Of a stretch of 64,000 nt of DNA, positions 32,822-39,089 are shown one piece after another (positions within the stretch are counted from its first letter, which is position 1; every line of letters begins with the position of its first letter). The stretch comes from Enterobacteria phage RB18: sequence record NC_054906.1. The stretch is one strand, 5' to 3'. The position numbers and the translations under genes are program-made. The notes beneath the pieces were generated by a model. It was given only the letters and a program-made list of their open reading frames with translations, was not told the DNA's origin and searched no databases.

Positions 32822-33377
32822 ATTTTTCTAATAATAAATCGCTTTCAAAATTGGGATTTTCTACGAATTTATCAAAAAGATCATCAACAATAGTTAAGAT
32901 ATTCTTTTTACTAAGAATACGTTTATTTTCATGCTTCGTTTCAGAATCAACTATAAGAGTAAAGAAATATTTCTTGCCCTGAAATTTTACAGTAGTATCA
33001 ATATAGAATAAATTTGACTTTTGTAAATTACGTTTAAACCATGCATCACTTAAACTATAAACGCCAAGATAATCATAATCGTCGTTTAAATAACAGACCG
33101 TCCATTCAGGAGAAACAAAATCAGTAAATTCAACATCAAAATCACATGTCAATGAATGAATTGATTCAATACTGTTAATAAGTATTCCAGGACGTATTAA
33201 AGACTTTTTACCTCTAGAAAATCTTCCAGAAAGACTTTCATCAGTTTCATATGAAGAACCCCAATAATAATTACGTCCTTCTGCCATACGTTTAAGAGCA
33301 TTTAATAATTGGTCTGGAACATCAACTTGTCTTTGGAATTCTTCAAACATTGAATTGAAATCACTTTGCATTTTCAT
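32769..33377 (-). CDS. Hypothetical protein
   Basis: 202-aa ORF. Confidence 0.5.
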   Translation of the reverse strand: MKMQSDFNSMFEEFQRQVDVPDQLLNALKRMAEGRNYYWGSSYETDESLSGRFSRGKKSLIRPGILINSIESIHSLTCDFDVEFTDFVSPEWTVCYLNDDYDYLGVYSLSDAWFKRNLQKSNLFYIDTTVKFQGKKYFFTLIVDSETKHENKRILSKKNILTIVDDLFDKFVENPNFESDLLLEKFVKECREYVKTITIPSK

Positions 33378-33397
33378 TCCTATTTACTCCAAGTAAT

Positions 33398-33413
33398 AGG
33401 GGCCGAAGCCCCT
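33398..33413 (-). terminator. UUCG-tetraloop hairpin (weak terminator or stabiliser)
   Basis: AGGGGC-UUCG-GCCCCU just 3' of the ORF at 33419-34012; no clean U-tract. Confidence 0.35.
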
Positions 33414-33418
33414 TATCA

Positions 33419-34012
33419 TTATTTCAGAGAATTAATATATTCCTGAACATCGGCAGAGGTAGTTTCAACCCCAGAAATATTACCATTAAAGGTTTCAACT
33501 CGAGCAAGAGTATCTTCAATATCAACCTTAGTCAGTGCTGCAATTTCAACTACATCATCGGCAGTACTAATTCCGAGGTCATTCGCGGCGCGAGTTTCAC
33601 GGATATATTCCAATTTAACTGCAAGTTCTTGGCGAGCATCATCTAACTCAACTACTTTCTTGGCGATTTCAATTCGCATTTCAGCATAACCATCAGCTTT
33701 AGTAGTCAACTGCTCAGCTGTTCGACGATATAGTAAACCAAGTTTAGCATGCATTGTTACATCTTGACCTTCCGAAAGAAGCTTGCGAATTTCACGCTCT
33801 TTTGATTCGGCCTGCTTATTCTTTTCGACAATAAGTTCACGAATACGCTTTTCTTCATTAATAGATTTAACAGAAGCAGTTTTTAGATCTTTAATCTTAT
33901 CAAGTAGTTTTGCTGCTGCAGCAGTATACTGTTCTTCAACAGATAGATTTTTAGCCATAGCAGAACCAAGTTTAGTGCGAATAAACTCAACAATTTTCTT
34001 CAGTGTGTTCAT
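33419..34012 (-). CDS. Coiled-coil protein (possibly PspA/IM30-like)
   Basis: 197 aa, largely predicted helical and rich in E/K/R heptads; the PspA-like idea is an impression only. Confidence 0.45.
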
Positions 34013-34068
34013 AGTATTTCCTTAGGTTGGTATAATTAGATAATATCACGTTTTAATAGATTGTAAAC

Positions 34069-34404
34069 TTATTCTTCGTCTAGCTCGTCGATAAAGACGT
34101 TGATGGCCTCGATAACGGCATCATTGATAGCTAATAAAATAAAATCATCGTCAGTACCTTTAGAAGATTCTAAAGCATTGATATATGCTTGGTTGGCGAG
34201 TTCCCAAGCCTTTTTAAAATAAGGAGCTTCATCATCAGGACAAATATCCCGCACGCCTTCAAAGATACGTTTGGCATAATCTAACACCCATTGTACAGGC
34301 ATGTTTTGAGAACGTTCGTTAAACTCTTTAAAGTCCTTAGATTCAAAAAGCTCTTCAGGATAATTATTTCTATTACAAAAAGCTTTACTAAAGTTACGTT
34401 TCAT
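34069..34404 (-). CDS. Hypothetical protein
   Basis: 111-aa ORF. Confidence 0.5.
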   Translation of the reverse strand: MKRNFSKAFCNRNNYPEELFESKDFKEFNERSQNMPVQWVLDYAKRIFEGVRDICPDDEAPYFKKAWELANQAYINALESSKGTDDDFILLAINDAVIEAINVFIDELDEE

Positions 34405-34460
34405 AATGTTTTCCTCATTTGTATAGGCTCATAATATCTCAATCATGAGCCTATGTAAAC

Positions 34461-34736
34461 TTATTTCATATTATTGAAATATTCTTCTGCGATTTCGTCG
34501 TTATCATGGTAAACTTTAGAAGACAGTTTAACATAACTTTCAGCAGTGAACATGTTAATCACAACCTTTACAGTATACCACTGACCGTCTTCATTGCCCA
34601 TTACCGCATAAGTTTCAAACATCGGATGATCAGGACCGATAACTTTAATATCATTCACTGTACGACCGAAATCTTCTGAAACACATTTCATAAAGAAGTT
34701 GAACAGTTCGCCGTAATTATCCATTTCGTTCTCCAA
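34461..34736 (-). CDS. Hypothetical protein
   Basis: 91-aa ORF downstream of an early-type promoter. Confidence 0.5.
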   Translation of the reverse strand: MENEMDNYGELFNFFMKCVSEDFGRTVNDIKVIGPDHPMFETYAVMGNEDGQWYTVKVVINMFTAESYVKLSSKVYHDNDEIAEEYFNNMK

Positions 34737-34767
34737 GTTGTTTTCTGTATCAGTAGTTGATAGTTGT

Positions 34768-34797
34768 ATAGTACCATGGAAGAACAGGGATGTAAAC
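34768..34797 (-). promoter_or_regulatory. Early promoter with conserved leader
   Basis: GTTTAC (34792-34797), 18-nt spacer, TGGTACTAT, leader ...CAACTATCAACTAC. Confidence 0.55.
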
Positions 34798-34925
34798 AGT
34801 TTTGTGAAAAAATTTTTAAAAAGTTTTAGGGAATTCTAGGGTCAGGAGGGGCAATTAAAAGATAGGATAATATATTATAAAGGGTAGAAACTAAATGATG
34901 CCTAGAGAGGCCCAGAAAGGCCTAG

Positions 34926-34961
34926 ATACCAAAAAGCCCCAACCTTTTGGTCGGGGCTAAG
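34926..34961 (-). terminator. Intrinsic terminator, copy 1 of a 36-bp direct repeat
   Basis: Minus-strand GCCCCGACC-AAAA-GGUUGGGGC then UUUUUGG; 35/36 identical to copy 2. Confidence 0.7.
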
Positions 34962-34965
34962 AATG

Positions 34966-35439
34966 TTATTTGATTTGTTTAGCAGACCAAATGCGGTCTT
35001 TAATAATTTTTTGGATGTCTTCAACATACTCTAGGTCATGAGCATGTGGGTTATCTTTAAAACTATAAGCACGAGCTAACTTTTGACCTTCAGTTTTGAT
35101 TACTAAAAGCTCTTTAAGGATAGCTTCATATCTGGAGATAATTCCTTTAACAATATTTTTTTCTTGTGTAGCTTTAGGATCTGCTTTAGGAGCAGGTTTA
35201 CCCGAAGCCTTTGCAAAAGCAGCGCCAGTAGCAACTAAACTTTTCCAGGCCATACTAACTGCATTCCCTGTAAATCCTTCGGCTTTCATATCACGAGCAA
35301 ATTGGAATCGTGATTCATCGGAAGCATCTTTATAGGAATATTTACCCGCGGCAATGGCTGCTTTTGCGACAGCTTGAATTTCGGTGCTAGATGCTTCATT
35401 TAACACCGCTTCATTTAAAAATTGAGCATATGATTTCAT
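34966..35439 (-). CDS. Late-expressed protein with a divergent capsid-targeting-like N-terminus
   Basis: 157 aa starting MKSYAQFLNEA (compare MKTYQEFIAEA); Ala/Lys-rich; own TATAAATA late promoter; flanked by two near-identical terminators. Confidence 0.55.
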   Translation of the reverse strand: MKSYAQFLNEAVLNEASSTEIQAVAKAAIAAGKYSYKDASDESRFQFARDMKAEGFTGNAVSMAWKSLVATGAAFAKASGKPAPKADPKATQEKNIVKGIISRYEAILKELLVIKTEGQKLARAYSFKDNPHAHDLEYVEDIQKIIKDRIWSAKQIK

Positions 35440-35475
35440 CTTATTTCCTGTTTTAATTCGTGGTTTTAATATACT

Positions 35476-35483
35476 TATTTATA
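35476..35483 (-). promoter_or_regulatory. Late promoter (TATAAATA) for the ORF at 34966-35439
   Basis: Minus-strand TATAAATA immediately after the upstream terminator U-tract. Confidence 0.55.
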
Positions 35484-35516
35484 CCAAAAAGCCCCAACCT
35501 TTCGGTCGGGGCTAAG
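35481..35516 (-). terminator. Intrinsic terminator, copy 2 of the 36-bp direct repeat
   Basis: GCCCCGACC-GAAA-GGUUGGGGC then UUUUUGG; terminates the tRNA/ncRNA transcript. Confidence 0.7.
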
Positions 35517-35822
35517 CCTTGCGGCAACCTTGTCGGGGTTCCACCTGCTAAGGCAAGTGTTTGTACGAAACGCCGGGATTCGAACCCGGTTATTAAGCAG
35601 TTGACGCTACTTAATATTTTTAAAAGGCCATATCTCGACCATATCCGAACGTTCCGTCAAAAACGCTACTCGGCTTACGGCAAAGATATTTCCTCGAATC
35701 GATAATTCGGTGCGCCGTTTCTGCTGTGATGTAAGAGGGCATCAATAAACGCAAAGATTATTAACGCAATTCCTTACTCAGGGAACATCAGTCCGACGAC
35801 TTACCGGTAGCGACCCGGTTTC
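35517..35822 (-). ncRNA. Candidate structured stable RNA downstream of tRNA-Arg (tRNA-like T-arm motif)
   Basis: About 300 nt with no convincing ORF; GC-rich relative to surroundings; contains CCGGG-TTCGAAT-CCCGG and GC-rich stems; ends at a strong terminator. Confidence 0.35.
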
Positions 35823-36173
35823 TTAATATTCTTTTAAAGCATCAATCTGCTCACGGCGTTTACGCCACAAATCAATTGCTTCATACGCGGATTCAGCATT
35901 TCGAATTAGCCGGCATTTATGTAAAGACTTATGATTTTGATATTGTGTAGATAACGGAATTTTATCTAAAAGGTCTTTACGTTCAAAGTATTCGTAACCA
36001 TCTAAGCCAAATGAACGATTTTTAAGAAATTGCCAATGACCATATTCGTTTTCGATATAAACATAATCTGCGTGCTGATAAAGCAAATTAATTACGCGTT
36101 CAGAAATAACAGTGTCATTGTGATTAAAATAGAATGTTAAATCATGAACTACTAAATAAACATTACCTTTCAT
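35823..36173 (-). CDS. Hypothetical protein encoded inside the tRNA region
   Basis: 116 aa; strong RBS AAGTGAGGAAAATATG; lies just 3' of tRNA-Arg on the same strand. Confidence 0.55.
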   Translation of the reverse strand: MKGNVYLVVHDLTFYFNHNDTVISERVINLLYQHADYVYIENEYGHWQFLKNRSFGLDGYEYFERKDLLDKIPLSTQYQNHKSLHKCRLIRNAESAYEAIDLWRKRREQIDALKEY

Positions 36174-36190
36174 ATTTTCCTCACTTATAA

Positions 36191-36266
36191 TTGGTCGAGG
36201 CAGTAGGGATCGAACCTACGACCCAGGACTTAGAAGGTCCTTGCTCTTCCTTCTGAGCTATGCCCC
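36191..36266 (-). tRNA. tRNA-Arg (anticodon UCU)
   Basis: 76-nt cloverleaf on the minus strand; anticodon loop CUUCUAA; T-arm GTAGG-TTCGATC-CCTAC; encoded CCA. Confidence 0.8.
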
Positions 36267-36270
36267 GTAA

Positions 36271-36346
36271 TTGGGGTGACCGATGGGAGTCGAACCCATG
36301 ACTACGAGAATCACAATCTCGAGTTCTACCAACTGAACTACGGCCA
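36271..36346 (-). tRNA. tRNA-His (anticodon GUG)
   Basis: 76 nt; anticodon loop UUGUGAU; discriminator C; T-loop TTCGACT. Confidence 0.75.
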
Positions 36347-36460
36347 CATTAATACCTACTCCAACAATCAAGATGTCTTCACACGAAATTAAGAGAAGAG
36401 TGATCAGTTCAACCCTTATAATCGCGTCAAGTAGATATTAATGTGACAGTTGTCACAAAT

Positions 36461-36535
36461 TTGGCGGACGTGATAGGATTCGAACCTATAACCAATCGCT
36501 TAACAGGCGATCGCTCTGCCATTGAGCTACACATC
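36461..36535 (-). tRNA. tRNA-Asn (anticodon GUU)
   Basis: 75 nt; anticodon loop CUGUUAA; T-arm ATAGG-TTCGAAT-CCTAT. Confidence 0.75.
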
Positions 36536-36539
36536 CAAA

Positions 36540-36626
36540 TTGGTGGGGAGTGATGGAGTCGAACCACCCGAGTCGCAATGACAATGGATTTACAGTCCAC
36601 ACCGCTACCTCTACGGGATAACTCCC
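36540..36626 (-). tRNA. tRNA-Tyr (anticodon GUA), long variable arm
   Basis: 87 nt; anticodon loop CUGUAAA; type-II variable arm; acceptor GGGGAGT/ACTCCCC. Confidence 0.7.
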
Positions 36627-36632
36627 CTTAAT

Positions 36633-36707
36633 TTGGTGGCCCTGGGTGGAATTGAACCACCATCTGGCGATTATGAGTCGCTTGCTTGAACCTTCCAGCT
36701 ACAGGGC
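36633..36707 (-). tRNA. tRNA-Ile (anticodon CAU, lysidine type)
   Basis: 75 nt; anticodon arm GCGACTCATAATCGC resembles bacterial tRNA-Ile2; 1 nt from tRNA-Thr (dimeric precursor). Confidence 0.7.
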
Positions 36708-36708
36708 C

Positions 36709-36784
36709 TTGGTGCTGATTGACGGAATCGAACCGCCGACCTTCTCATTACAAGTGAGTTGCTCTACCTATTGAGCTAAATCAG
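36709..36784 (-). tRNA. tRNA-Thr (anticodon UGU)
   Basis: 76 nt; anticodon loop CUUGUAA; T-arm GGCGG-TTCGATT-CCGTC. Confidence 0.8.
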
Positions 36785-36789
36785 CAAAA

Positions 36790-36879
36790 CTGGCGGAGGC
36801 GATAGGATTTGAACCTATGAGTCGCCGGAGCGACTGCCGGTTTTCAAGACCGGTGCATTAAACCACTCTGCCACGCCTC
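36790..36879 (-). tRNA. tRNA-Ser (anticodon UGA), long variable arm
   Basis: 90 nt; anticodon loop CUUGAAA; long variable stem-loop. Confidence 0.8.
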
Positions 36880-36886
36880 CAAATAT

Positions 36887-37537
36887 TTATATATTGTTAA
36901 TTTGATTTAGAATTCTTTTTGCTTGAGTATGACTTACGCCAATATGCTTAGCATATTTAGACAATTCGCCACGTTTAGAAAAATCATATAATTTAGAAAT
37001 TTCTATTCTTCTTTTTCTTTCATCCGCAGAAACTTTTGCTTCGTTCGCTTTTGCTATTTTACGTTTAGCTTCTTGAGAATGAGTTTTACCAGCAAAGCCA
37101 TTCTTCATTAATCCATTTGAAGACCATCCTTTTAATTTTCCGTTAGAATGTGCCTTTTTAACACCCAATGAAATTAATTCGCGCTGCTGATCTGTCATAG
37201 GATAATTATTTATATGGTCCCATCCACCTTCACCTCCAAGTTTTAAATTATACACATCTGGTCTATTTAAAAACTCTTCTGTGACAATATTTTTCTCGGC
37301 TTCAAGCATAGATTCTTTATCGTCAAAATACTCTAATATTTCTTTAGAAAAATTTTCTATACCATATTTATCTTGGGCTCTTTTTAATAATTTACCAGAA
37401 CCCATATATCCATCATCTAAATTTTCGGTAGAATGCACACCAATATAAATTTTATTATTAATTTTATTTGTTATTTTATAAAGATAAAAATGCATATCAG
37501 TCCCTAATAAAGAACTGAGCGTCTCACGACGAGTCAT
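36887..37537 (-). CDS. segB: GIY-YIG homing endonuclease SegB-like
   Basis: GIY-YIG motif FYLYKITNKINNKIYIGVHS; inserted between tRNA-Gly and tRNA-Ser; the true start may be the internal ATG at 37495. Confidence 0.7.
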   Translation of the reverse strand: MTRRETLSSLLGTDMHFYLYKITNKINNKIYIGVHSTENLDDGYMGSGKLLKRAQDKYGIENFSKEILEYFDDKESMLEAEKNIVTEEFLNRPDVYNLKLGGEGGWDHINNYPMTDQQRELISLGVKKAHSNGKLKGWSSNGLMKNGFAGKTHSQEAKRKIAKANEAKVSADERKRRIEISKLYDFSKRGELSKYAKHIGVSHTQAKRILNQINNI

Positions 37538-37541
37538 AAAT

Positions 37542-37615
<74 letters not shown>

Positions 37616-37620
37616 AAATT

Positions 37621-37707
37621 TGGTGCGAGAAGTGGGACTCGAACCCACAAGGAAATCATTCCGCAGCATTTTAAGTGCTGTGCCTTTACCAATTTGACCA
37701 TTCTCGC
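37621..37707 (-). tRNA. tRNA-Leu (anticodon UAA), long variable arm
   Basis: 87 nt; anticodon loop CUUAAAA; type-II variable arm. Confidence 0.8.
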
Positions 37708-37708
37708 G

Positions 37709-37781
37709 CTGGGAATAAAGGACTCGAACCTTTGCATCCTGGAATCAAAATCCAGTGCCTTACCAACTTGGCTAATTCCCA
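37709..37781 (-). tRNA. tRNA-Gln (anticodon UUG); CCA not encoded, abuts tRNA-Leu
   Basis: 73 nt; U1-A72 acceptor TGGGAAT/ATTCCCA; anticodon loop UUUUGAU. Confidence 0.75.
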
Positions 37782-37867
37782 ATTATTAACAAAGGCTCTC
37801 AAATAAGAGCCCTTGATGATAGAGGGTATTAATCAGTGCGGTATGAGTTAATAATAACAAATAATTC

Positions 37868-38392
37868 TTAAAGCAAATTAAACATTTTAACGGTCGGCAA
37901 AACAATTTCTTTTTCTATATAAGAGTATTTAACACTCTCAACTACGCGCAGAAAATCATAATCATAATATTCAGAAGCACTGCCTAAAATATTAATAAGT
38001 CCTTCAAGCACTTTATTACAATTCACAAAGAATAAGTCAAATACACGTTCTTCATCTTCTTCAGATTTATTACCAAGGTCAACTTCTATATCAAAGACCT
38101 TTTTAATGAATTCTGGATAAAGCTGGTCTGAGAACAGTCCTTCAACCAAGTATTCATAGATAAAAAGCGATTGCTCGCTGAACAAGCCATTACCACAATA
38201 ACGTTCAGCTTTAGTACTAGAATGTCTGCTTTTAAACTTCTTTAAAAGATATTGGAACTGTAAGATTTCATGCTCTTCTACGCCAAACAGTGTTTTAGTT
38301 TTATAGTTGTCACCATCATTTTCCCAGGTAGTGACATCAATTACGTAACCCTGCGGAATTGTAGTACCTAAACAAATATTCATTTTCACCAC
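37868..38392 (-). CDS. Hypothetical protein
   Basis: 174-aa ORF. Confidence 0.5.
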   Translation of the reverse strand: MVKMNICLGTTIPQGYVIDVTTWENDGDNYKTKTLFGVEEHEILQFQYLLKKFKSRHSSTKAERYCGNGLFSEQSLFIYEYLVEGLFSDQLYPEFIKKVFDIEVDLGNKSEEDEERVFDLFFVNCNKVLEGLINILGSASEYYDYDFLRVVESVKYSYIEKEIVLPTVKMFNLL

Positions 38393-38682
38393 GCTGCATT
38401 AATATAAGTATATTTAATACATTCAAGACTTAAAGGATTCTTGAAAATATCATATTCAAGAGGACCTTTTTCTGTTTCAATAAAGAAATCAAAATTTACT
38501 GTATTAAATTTACGGTCTTCCTTCACTAATTTAACCTGAGAAGATGAACGGTCAATGTAAACCTTTTCAACTTCAAAACATGTTAAAATGCCATAATCAT
38601 CAATCAAGGCTTTAGCTGCTTCTTGATCATATTTATATCCATTTTCAATGGACGATACTTTCGCATAAAGTATCATTATCAA
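38386..38682 (-). CDS. Hypothetical protein
   Basis: 98-aa ORF. Confidence 0.45.
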   Translation of the reverse strand: MIMILYAKVSSIENGYKYDQEAAKALIDDYGILTCFEVEKVYIDRSSSQVKLVKEDRKFNTVNFDFFIETEKGPLEYDIFKNPLSLECIKYTYINAAW

Positions 38683-39089
38683 CCTCTATCAACAATAGCA
38701 TGAGTATGGGCATTTACGATTTGCCACCAGTCGAAACGATTGGAACCATAATCTGGTTTATTTTCATTTTCTTTAATGATATCACGCAGTTTATCTTCTG
38801 TTTCAGCATACGCAATTAAATCATCATATCCACCGCAAGGATAATAATTATCACCTGCGAATAAAAGAAAATTTACCTTAGATGGATTTACGTAATAATG
38901 GTCTTTAGGATATTTAGTTCCTCTCCAATCAGTTACTTCAACATAACGGTAAGAAAATCCATTTTTACTTTCAATCCAACTCCACGCTTCAAAAGGAGTA
39001 TTAAAAACTTTATCAGGTATTAAATTACCTTCAAAATGAGAAGGATTTGCATAATCCCCGGCATAAACATAATATTCGTTAATACTCAT
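38679..39089 (-). CDS. Hypothetical protein
   Basis: 136-aa ORF rich in aromatic residues. Confidence 0.5.
   Translation of the reverse strand: MSINEYYVYAGDYANPSHFEGNLIPDKVFNTPFEAWSWIESKNGFSYRYVEVTDWRGTKYPKDHYYVNPSKVNFLLFAGDNYYPCGGYDDLIAYAETEDKLRDIIKENENKPDYGSNRFDWWQIVNAHTHAIVDRG

Follow-up and report, generated by a model that had tools for sequence, protein, structure and literature searches.

Two small stable RNAs of bacteriophage T4, species 1 (rnaC) and species 2 (rnaD), have been known for about fifty years and were sequenced from T4 in the 1970s. Work in the 1980s on the species 1 precursor concerned RNase E, RNase III, RNase P and self-cleavage. In the SegB paper (PMC2330249), which summarises earlier work, a T4 transcript of about 1.75 kb spans the whole tRNA cluster, ends downstream of the species I gene and serves as precursor to both stable RNAs as well as to the tRNAs; co-transcription of rnaC and rnaD with the tRNA array is credited there to Broida and Abelson. 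A 2022 omics study reported RNAC of T4 by Northern blot and classed RNAC and RNAD as late RNAs of unknown function (PMC9697503). No function for either RNA is reported in the searchable literature (PMC3014915, PMC9697503, PMC12685909), and no description of a tRNA-like or kissing-loop structure of rnaC was found there.

The DNA analysed here, a stretch of 64,000 nucleotides that we refer to as the window, is 100% identical to Escherichia phage AR1 (AP011113) in a BLAST search against phage genomes that matched 805 records. A sequence-only reading had picked out positions 35517-35822 as a single structured RNA candidate, either a stable RNA like those of the T4 tRNA region or a processing element. 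The T4 match covers exactly the ORF-free part of this region (window 35481-35823, about 98%; BLAST 98.5%), and the corresponding T4 interval (NC_000866) is annotated with two misc_RNA genes, rnaD (species 2 RNA, 71053-71171) and rnaC (species 1 RNA, 70908-71046), immediately downstream of tRNA-Arg. The interval very probably holds the AR1 orthologues of these two genes with conserved rnaC and rnaD structure, as judged from alignment and covariation, in the same order and operon position as in T4. Hence the guess of a stable RNA was right in kind but not in number, since the interval contains two separate RNAs plus a 3' trailer, and the term processing element could cover no more than the trailer and the 6-nt spacer. 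As both RNAs are already annotated in the T4 reference this is a rediscovery and not a new kind of element. The feature map (Table 1) was transferred from the T4 annotation by pairwise alignment, and the rnaD ends are good to a few nucleotides.

Table 1. Features of the rnaD/rnaC interval, in window coordinates.
Feature	Position	Strand	Basis
rnaD (species 2 RNA) orthologue, about 117 nt	35709-35825	-	T4 rnaD match, 99-100% identity over 115-116 nt
rnaD 5' hairpin, loop GUCGCUA	35803-35819	-	
rnaD closing long-range stem, invariant	35794-35800 with 35710-35717	-	
Spacer GAAUUA, 6 nt, between rnaD and rnaC	35703-35708	-	alignment; tRNA annotations of Melville, VPA32 and COW86c
rnaC (species 1 RNA) orthologue, 139 nt, tRNA-like four-way junction	35564-35702	-	T4 rnaC match; covariation
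Acceptor-like stem, 5' CGAUUCG with 3' CGUUUCG, 7 positions, two conserved U.U mismatches	35695-35701 with 35566-35572	-	covarying third pair
AGG/CCU helix, 3 bp, under the extended arm, invariant	35692-35694 with 35625-35627	-	consensus fold
Long extended arm, about 25 bp, irregular, about 60 nt, in the D-arm position	35630-35689	-	compensatory changes in 11 of 12 pairs of its helices
Apical loop 1, UUGACG	35655-35660	-	complementary to loop 2
Hairpin 2, anticodon-/variable-arm position, 8-10 bp stem, loop CGUCAA at 35601-35606	35591-35616	-	compensatory changes in 8 of 9 stem pairs; loop invariant
T-arm CCGGG-UUCGAAU-CCCGG, followed by the acceptor 3' strand and then U-ACAA	35573-35589	-	sequence and covariation
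3' trailer from the rnaC end to the terminator, GC-rich (57%), 7-bp hairpin	35514-35563	-	also kept in T4 and in JS98 (which lacks rnaC)
Intrinsic terminator of the tRNA/stable-RNA operon, 10-bp stem, GAAA loop, U-run	35484-35513 (stem 35490-35513)	-	terminator scan

Several features named in the sequence-only reading were confirmed. The G+C content of 35517-35822 is 47.4% compared with 35.1% for the window, a level reached by only 0.35% of 306-nt windows, and the terminator and the flanking ORF (35823-36173) are both present on the minus strand. The T-arm-like element is there as the 17-mer CCGGGTTCGAATCCCGG; its core GGTTCGANTCC occurs seven times in the window against 0.03 expected, the other six copies all lying within called tRNAs. 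A complete cloverleaf is indeed absent, in that ARAGORN calls neither a tRNA nor a tmRNA in 35517-35825 and the Rfam tRNA model (RF00005) gives no match at E<=5, but the T-arm belongs to a tRNA-like four-way junction in rnaC that is complete and backed by covariation. The Rfam scan (cmscan, E<=5, 33000-39000) recovered the tRNAs of the array but placed no meaningful family on 35517-35825, the sole overlapping row being a plus-strand isrK match (E=4.9, 16 bits against a gathering score of 50). The statement that the interval has no credible reading frame holds insofar as there is no real gene, although mechanical ORFs of 81 aa (plus strand, 35460-35705) and 44 aa (minus strand, 35620-35754) do exist.

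All genes in this part of the window lie on the minus strand, with ten tRNAs called by ARAGORN at 36192-37781, and the order tRNA cluster, rnaD, rnaC, terminator, e.8 is common to T4 and AR1. T4 has its terminator at the corresponding place, after species I RNA (PMC2330249), and no terminator-like site was found on the minus strand between tRNA-Ser and rnaC. Co-transcription of AR1 rnaD and rnaC with the tRNA array is, for its part, only consistent with the sequence. A late-promoter consensus, TATAAATA, is located at 36884-36891 (minus strand) just upstream of tRNA-Ser and may drive late transcription of the distal tRNAs together with rnaD and rnaC. It lies at the end of a GIY-YIG/NUMOD3 homing-endonuclease ORF (36887-37537, minus strand; segD in the AR1 annotation) that splits the tRNA cluster, and the T4 counterpart in a similar position is segB.

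The two phages differ in context around the RNAs. In T4 rnaD starts 1-2 nt after tRNA-Arg, whereas in AR1 a 116-aa ORF (351 nt, at the position given above) intervenes, its stop codon TAA (35823-35825) abutting rnaD and overlapping its mapped 5' end. This is a difference of context and not of the RNA itself; given the upstream ORF, 5' maturation of rnaD in AR1 may differ from that in T4. The ORF belongs to phrog_3355 (function unassigned) and has no Pfam match, and the arrangement tRNA-Arg/116-aa ORF/rnaD is common to RB69 and G29, not T4. On the other side, AR1 carries an extra cassette between the terminator and e.8, a 157-aa ORF (34966-35439, minus strand; phrog_2280, function unassigned). 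It is bracketed by near-identical terminator hairpins at 34935-34958 and 35490-35513, with the same late-promoter consensus ahead of it at 35476-35483. The ORF is absent in T4 and looks like an inserted cassette with a duplicated operon terminator.

Within the tRNA cluster, a tRNA-free gap of 114 nt between tRNA-Asn and tRNA-His (36348-36461, minus strand) folds at -33 kcal/mol (z=-4.55). It has neither an annotation nor an Rfam family; 354 phage records contain a match, the most diverged of which, in Karamvirus, Gelderlandvirus and Klebsiella phages, are about 78-80% identical. A stem of about 18 bp is kept with compensatory changes in six phages, its 3' strand adjoining the 5' end of tRNA-His; the gap is a candidate for a structured leader of tRNA-His or for a third stable RNA.

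AR1 rnaC aligns with T4 rnaC over 139/139 nt at 97.8% identity, differs by three substitutions that are all compatible with the fold, and lies, as there, between rnaD and the operon terminator. This copy (L080) has an nhmmer profile score of 128.8 bits and a predicted fold of -50.1 kcal/mol (z=-4.1 against shuffles). RNAalifold on 20 distinct rnaC sequences returned 35 pairs, 21 of which are compensatory. With the loop-loop helix described below added to the consensus, 98.1% of the cells in the 20 sequences are paired compared with 35-48% in slid controls, and 22 pairs show double changes compared with 2-6 in the controls. Covariation in homologues thus supports the rnaC fold, and the AR1 rnaC sequence is compatible with all 40 consensus pairs, loop-loop helix included.

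The 5'- and 3'-terminal strands of rnaC form the acceptor-like stem (family pattern CG(A/G)UUCG with CGUU(U/C)CG), in which the third pair is A-U in 4 sequences and G-C in 16. The stem is contiguous with the T-arm, and the element as a whole (35566-35589) carries a T-loop of the UUCRANY type; the middle pair of the T-stem covaries (G-C, U-A, A-U, U-G). An A-rich linker lies ahead of hairpin 2. The extended arm is seen in the individual minimum free energy (MFE) folds of 7 of the 10 representatives, and its basal part, where MAFFT misaligns two subfamilies, stands outside the consensus and is backed only by single-sequence folds. The encoded 3' sequence is U-ACAA without CCA, the T4 annotation stopping at ...CGUA, and Marfavirus-type rnaC encodes U-CCA. 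An alternative, internal acceptor pairing of CGGAACG with CGUUUCG was rejected; it is broken in ZX13 and the Melville group, and the 5'-terminal pairing covaries instead.

The two apical loops of rnaC, UUGACG and CGUCAA, are exact complements over 6 nt. Both hexamers are invariant in 31 distinct rnaC sequences, and in the six Marfavirus-type sequences UUGGCG is always found with CGCCAA, a concerted change from A-U to G-C; no one-sided loop change occurs among the 37 distinct rnaC sequences. Nearly every pair in the stems under the two loops covaries, and the kissing loops vary less than the T-loop does. Since the adjoining stems covary freely and the T-loop varies more than the loops do, the constraint on the loops appears to be sequence-specific. 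The apical loops most likely form a kissing-loop helix, for which the evidence is their invariance together with a single compensatory event in one lineage. The pairing could, however, be intermolecular or aimed at another target and not intramolecular, because the arm of about 25 bp would have to bend back in order to reach the hairpin of about 9 bp. While the genes themselves are known, the complementary loops with their concerted change may be the element of this finding that is new.

Loop-loop kissing with fully paired loops of 6-7 nt is familiar from HIV TAR-TAR* and from ColE1 RNA I-RNA II. Like rnaC, these complexes consist of hairpin pairs with fully complementary loops; in rnaC, in contrast, both hairpins belong to one 139-nt RNA and the helix is predicted from conservation and one compensatory change. 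In Klebsiella phage VPA32 (L009 1506-1644) the loop complementarity reaches 15 contiguous nucleotides, AAAGUAGUUGACGCU with AGCGUCAACUACUUU, and the MFE fold favours the extended duplex over two hairpins. This extended complementarity hints that an isomerisation from kissing to duplex may be possible.

rnaD, in comparison, is a separate structured module that is not tRNA-shaped, as its consensus fold indicates. Between the 5' hairpin and the closing stem (Table 1) it has a middle hairpin that is variable and covarying. The AR1 sequence alone folds at only z=-1.6 against shuffles; in the consensus of nine sequences, 93.8% of cells are paired compared with 34-49% in slid controls, with 10 compensatory pairs, so that covariation supports this fold as well. 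The AR1 rnaD 3' end is ...GCGCACC, within a family whose end is tRNA-like, ...CACC(A/G/U), and the encoded 3' end is CACCG in AR1 and CACCA in T4.

We gathered rnaC homologues by iterated searches with diverged copies and by pattern scans, and both BLAST and nhmmer find one copy per genome. rnaC is at least 95% identical in 679 of 745 phage records (98.6% in Mosigvirus RB69), whereas rnaD is more variable, with 406 records at 80-90% identity and 107 at 60-80%. The 37 distinct rnaC sequences are all 138-142 nt long and come from ten genera, namely Tequatrovirus, Mosigvirus, Gaprivervirus, Karamvirus, Gelderlandvirus, Kanagawavirus, Moonvirus, Winklervirus, Marfavirus and an unclassified Straboviridae phage. 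Pattern scans of viral contigs contributed 17 distinct sequences and no new loop variant. In a metagenome scan only 3 of 53 loci were real (Marfa- and Winkler-like), the other 50 being chance matches in GC-rich coding sequence, and in bacterial genomes none of 120 pattern matches was a real rnaC.

The two RNAs occur independently of each other. In JS98 (Dhakavirus) rnaD is fused to the trailer and terminator with exactly the rnaC segment missing (window 35562-35705; L008 1501-1700), so that rnaC behaves as a discrete module that can be inserted or deleted. In AnYang, the second Dhakavirus fetched (L077), rnaD is likewise present, and the fetched stretch yielded no rnaC. Conversely, rnaC is found without rnaD in the non-T4-type copies examined, from Karam-, Gelderland-, Kanagawa-, Moon-, Winkler- and Marfavirus and from the unclassified phage Ursula. 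By their distribution, then, rnaC and rnaD are independent modules. Since JS98 lacks rnaC, Karamvirus and others lack rnaD, and T4 deletions of the tRNA region are viable, both RNAs are dispensable in some hosts at least.

rnaC keeps company with tRNAs even where rnaD is missing. It directly follows tRNA-Trp in Melville, VPA32, COW86c and Ursula, with tRNA-Gly within about 12 nt after it in the first three and an annotated CDS between in Ursula, and it precedes tRNA-Trp in LC53 and Kc304. The same 5-nt spacer, AAUUA or a near variant, is found at the rnaD-rnaC junction and, in other genera, between the 3' CCA of tRNA-Trp and rnaC. The rnaD-rnaC spacer may be a processing site.

In order to see what rnaC resembles, it is useful to set it beside a canonical tRNA (RF00005). 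The two share a 7-position acceptor stem contiguous with a 5-bp T-stem, the UUCGAAU T-loop, a four-way junction, a place in the tRNA array and tRNA-like spacers. However, rnaC is twice as long, an arm of about 60 nt replaces the D-arm, the hairpin in the anticodon position has a 6-nt loop and not a 7-nt one, the acceptor stem has two U.U mismatches, and no CCA is encoded except in the Marfavirus type. tmRNA and the bacterial Y RNAs (YrlA) are non-tRNA RNAs that reuse the acceptor/T-arm module to engage tRNA-recognising proteins. They too carry this module in an RNA that is not a tRNA; the termini make up the Ro-binding stem in YrlA but the acceptor stem in rnaC. ARAGORN finds no tmRNA in the window, the Rfam scan gives no tmRNA match, and there is neither a tag ORF nor a pseudoknot series. 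The YrlA model (RF02553) does not match rnaC or rnaD, its sole match being to tRNA-Asn/Tyr at 36482-36596 with 21 bits against a gathering score of 69. An origin of rnaC from a tRNA is plausible.

These comparisons suggest a scheme in which rnaD and rnaC would be cut from the 3' end of the tRNA-operon transcript, with the trailer and the operon terminator after them. Because it has an acceptor/T-arm minihelix, U or A at position -1, tRNA neighbours and tRNA-like spacers, rnaC would probably be released and stabilised by host tRNA-maturation enzymes. In trans it would then probably act as a tRNA mimic that binds some tRNA-recognising factor, its body being fixed or dimerised by the loop-loop helix; the mimic would not be aminoacylated, since it is without an encoded CCA and a 7-nt anticodon loop. 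That rnaC does function as a tRNA mimic is, in our judgement, a possibility to be held tentatively. Winklervirus-type rnaC has a T-loop of UGCAUCC, UGCAUUC or UGCAUGC in place of UUCGAAU (L011 1426-1565, L019 526-665, L066 5057-5196), while both kissing loops and the remainder of the RNA are conserved. With a non-canonical UGCAUNC loop in this lineage the canonical T-loop appears dispensable there, and a strict mimic reading is weakened because the classical T-loop is not universally required.

A different role for the same modules would be one mainly in cis. As structured 3' modules rnaC and rnaD might steer ordered endonucleolytic processing or protect the tRNAs ahead of them against 3'-5' exonucleases, and the stable products would then be by-products. 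Such a role would suit their place in T4 and AR1, where they close the operon on its 3' side, just before the terminator, as well as the conserved spacers and the single precursor shared with the tRNAs (PMC2330249). In Gelderland-, Karam- and Winklervirus genomes, however, rnaC lies mid-array, and a mere cap needs neither invariant complementary loops nor a fixed length nor at least 95% identity across genera. We regard a chiefly cis-acting role as unlikely.

The loops also bear on the idea that rnaC, rnaD or both are base-pairing regulatory sRNAs, whose targets, bound through the invariant hexamer loops or other conserved single-stranded stretches, would be rRNA or the mRNAs of host or phage. 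Invariant loops beside freely covarying stems are typical of seed regions, and a T4-like phage was reported in 2025 to have acquired a convergent, adaptive SNP in rnaD in the course of host adaptation (PMC12685909). However, each loop is the complement of the other and both changed in concert in Marfavirus, which loop-loop pairing explains better than two external targets. Furthermore, no target is known, a 6-nt seed is too short for prediction, and according to a review T4 has no characterised trans-acting sRNA (PMC3014915). Regulation of this kind seems to us quite improbable.

Could the region instead consist of decayed tRNA genes, pseudogenes or genes disrupted by insertion, with no function of their own? 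The canonical T-arm and the acceptor-like stem would be expected of such remnants, and some pipelines call the 3' 94 nt of rnaC a tRNA, as in phage G29, where they are annotated as 'tRNA-Lys(ttt)' (L076 667-760). The T4-type linker moreover carries CUUUUAA, the tRNA-Lys anticodon-loop sequence. This motif is confined to T4/RB69/VR7-type sequences, and on that ground a tRNA-Lys mimic was rejected as a feature of the family. Against decay stand strong purifying selection, constant length and much compensatory change in arms that have no tRNA counterpart. In addition, CUUUUAA is not kept outside the T4/RB69/VR7 type, the internal acceptor pairing is broken as noted above, and neither ARAGORN nor the Rfam tRNA model detects a tRNA. 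The decayed-tRNA reading is largely refuted by this covariation, and we give it very little credence.

The AR1 record (AP011113) annotates neither RNA and lists instead a 40-aa hypothetical protein, AR1_138, over the rnaD/rnaC junction, within the 44-aa frame mentioned above. That the region encodes this small protein of 40-44 aa is hardly credible in spite of the GenBank annotation and of a match to phrog_24262 (E=3e-34), because T4 itself interrupts the frame with a premature stop, and in Melville, Ursula, VPA32, PEi20 and F48 the frame is lost within a few codons although the RNA structure persists, the nucleotide changes compensating RNA pairing. Gene callers that repeatedly place an ORF on an almost unchanging RNA gene would be expected to yield such a PHROG match, and the AR1_138 entry itself carries the note 'No matched to nr protein database'. 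Whatever probability the mimic reading and these rivals leave over belongs to something else.

Returning to rnaC as a tRNA mimic, a more specific form of that reading would make it a dedicated tRNA decoy. The acceptor/T-arm would serve as a 'ticket' into the host machinery that processes and binds tRNAs, and the conserved 6-bp kissing interaction of the extended arm with the hairpin in the anticodon position would lock or dimerise the body in a rigid shape that cannot be decoded, thereby titrating or inhibiting a tRNA-recognising factor. Such a factor might be a defence nuclease that attacks tRNAs, or an enzyme that modifies or repairs them. This proposal is speculative and we consider it doubtful.

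Many T4-like genomes leave rnaC and rnaD unannotated and carry spurious small ORFs or a false tRNA-Lys in their place. Collectively, the constant length of rnaC, its four-way junction, its complementary loops with one double change and the modular occurrence of rnaC and rnaD make the question of their function experimentally addressable. If the decoy reading were true, it would provide a function for a 50-year-old orphan RNA of roughly 750 sequenced T4-like phages.
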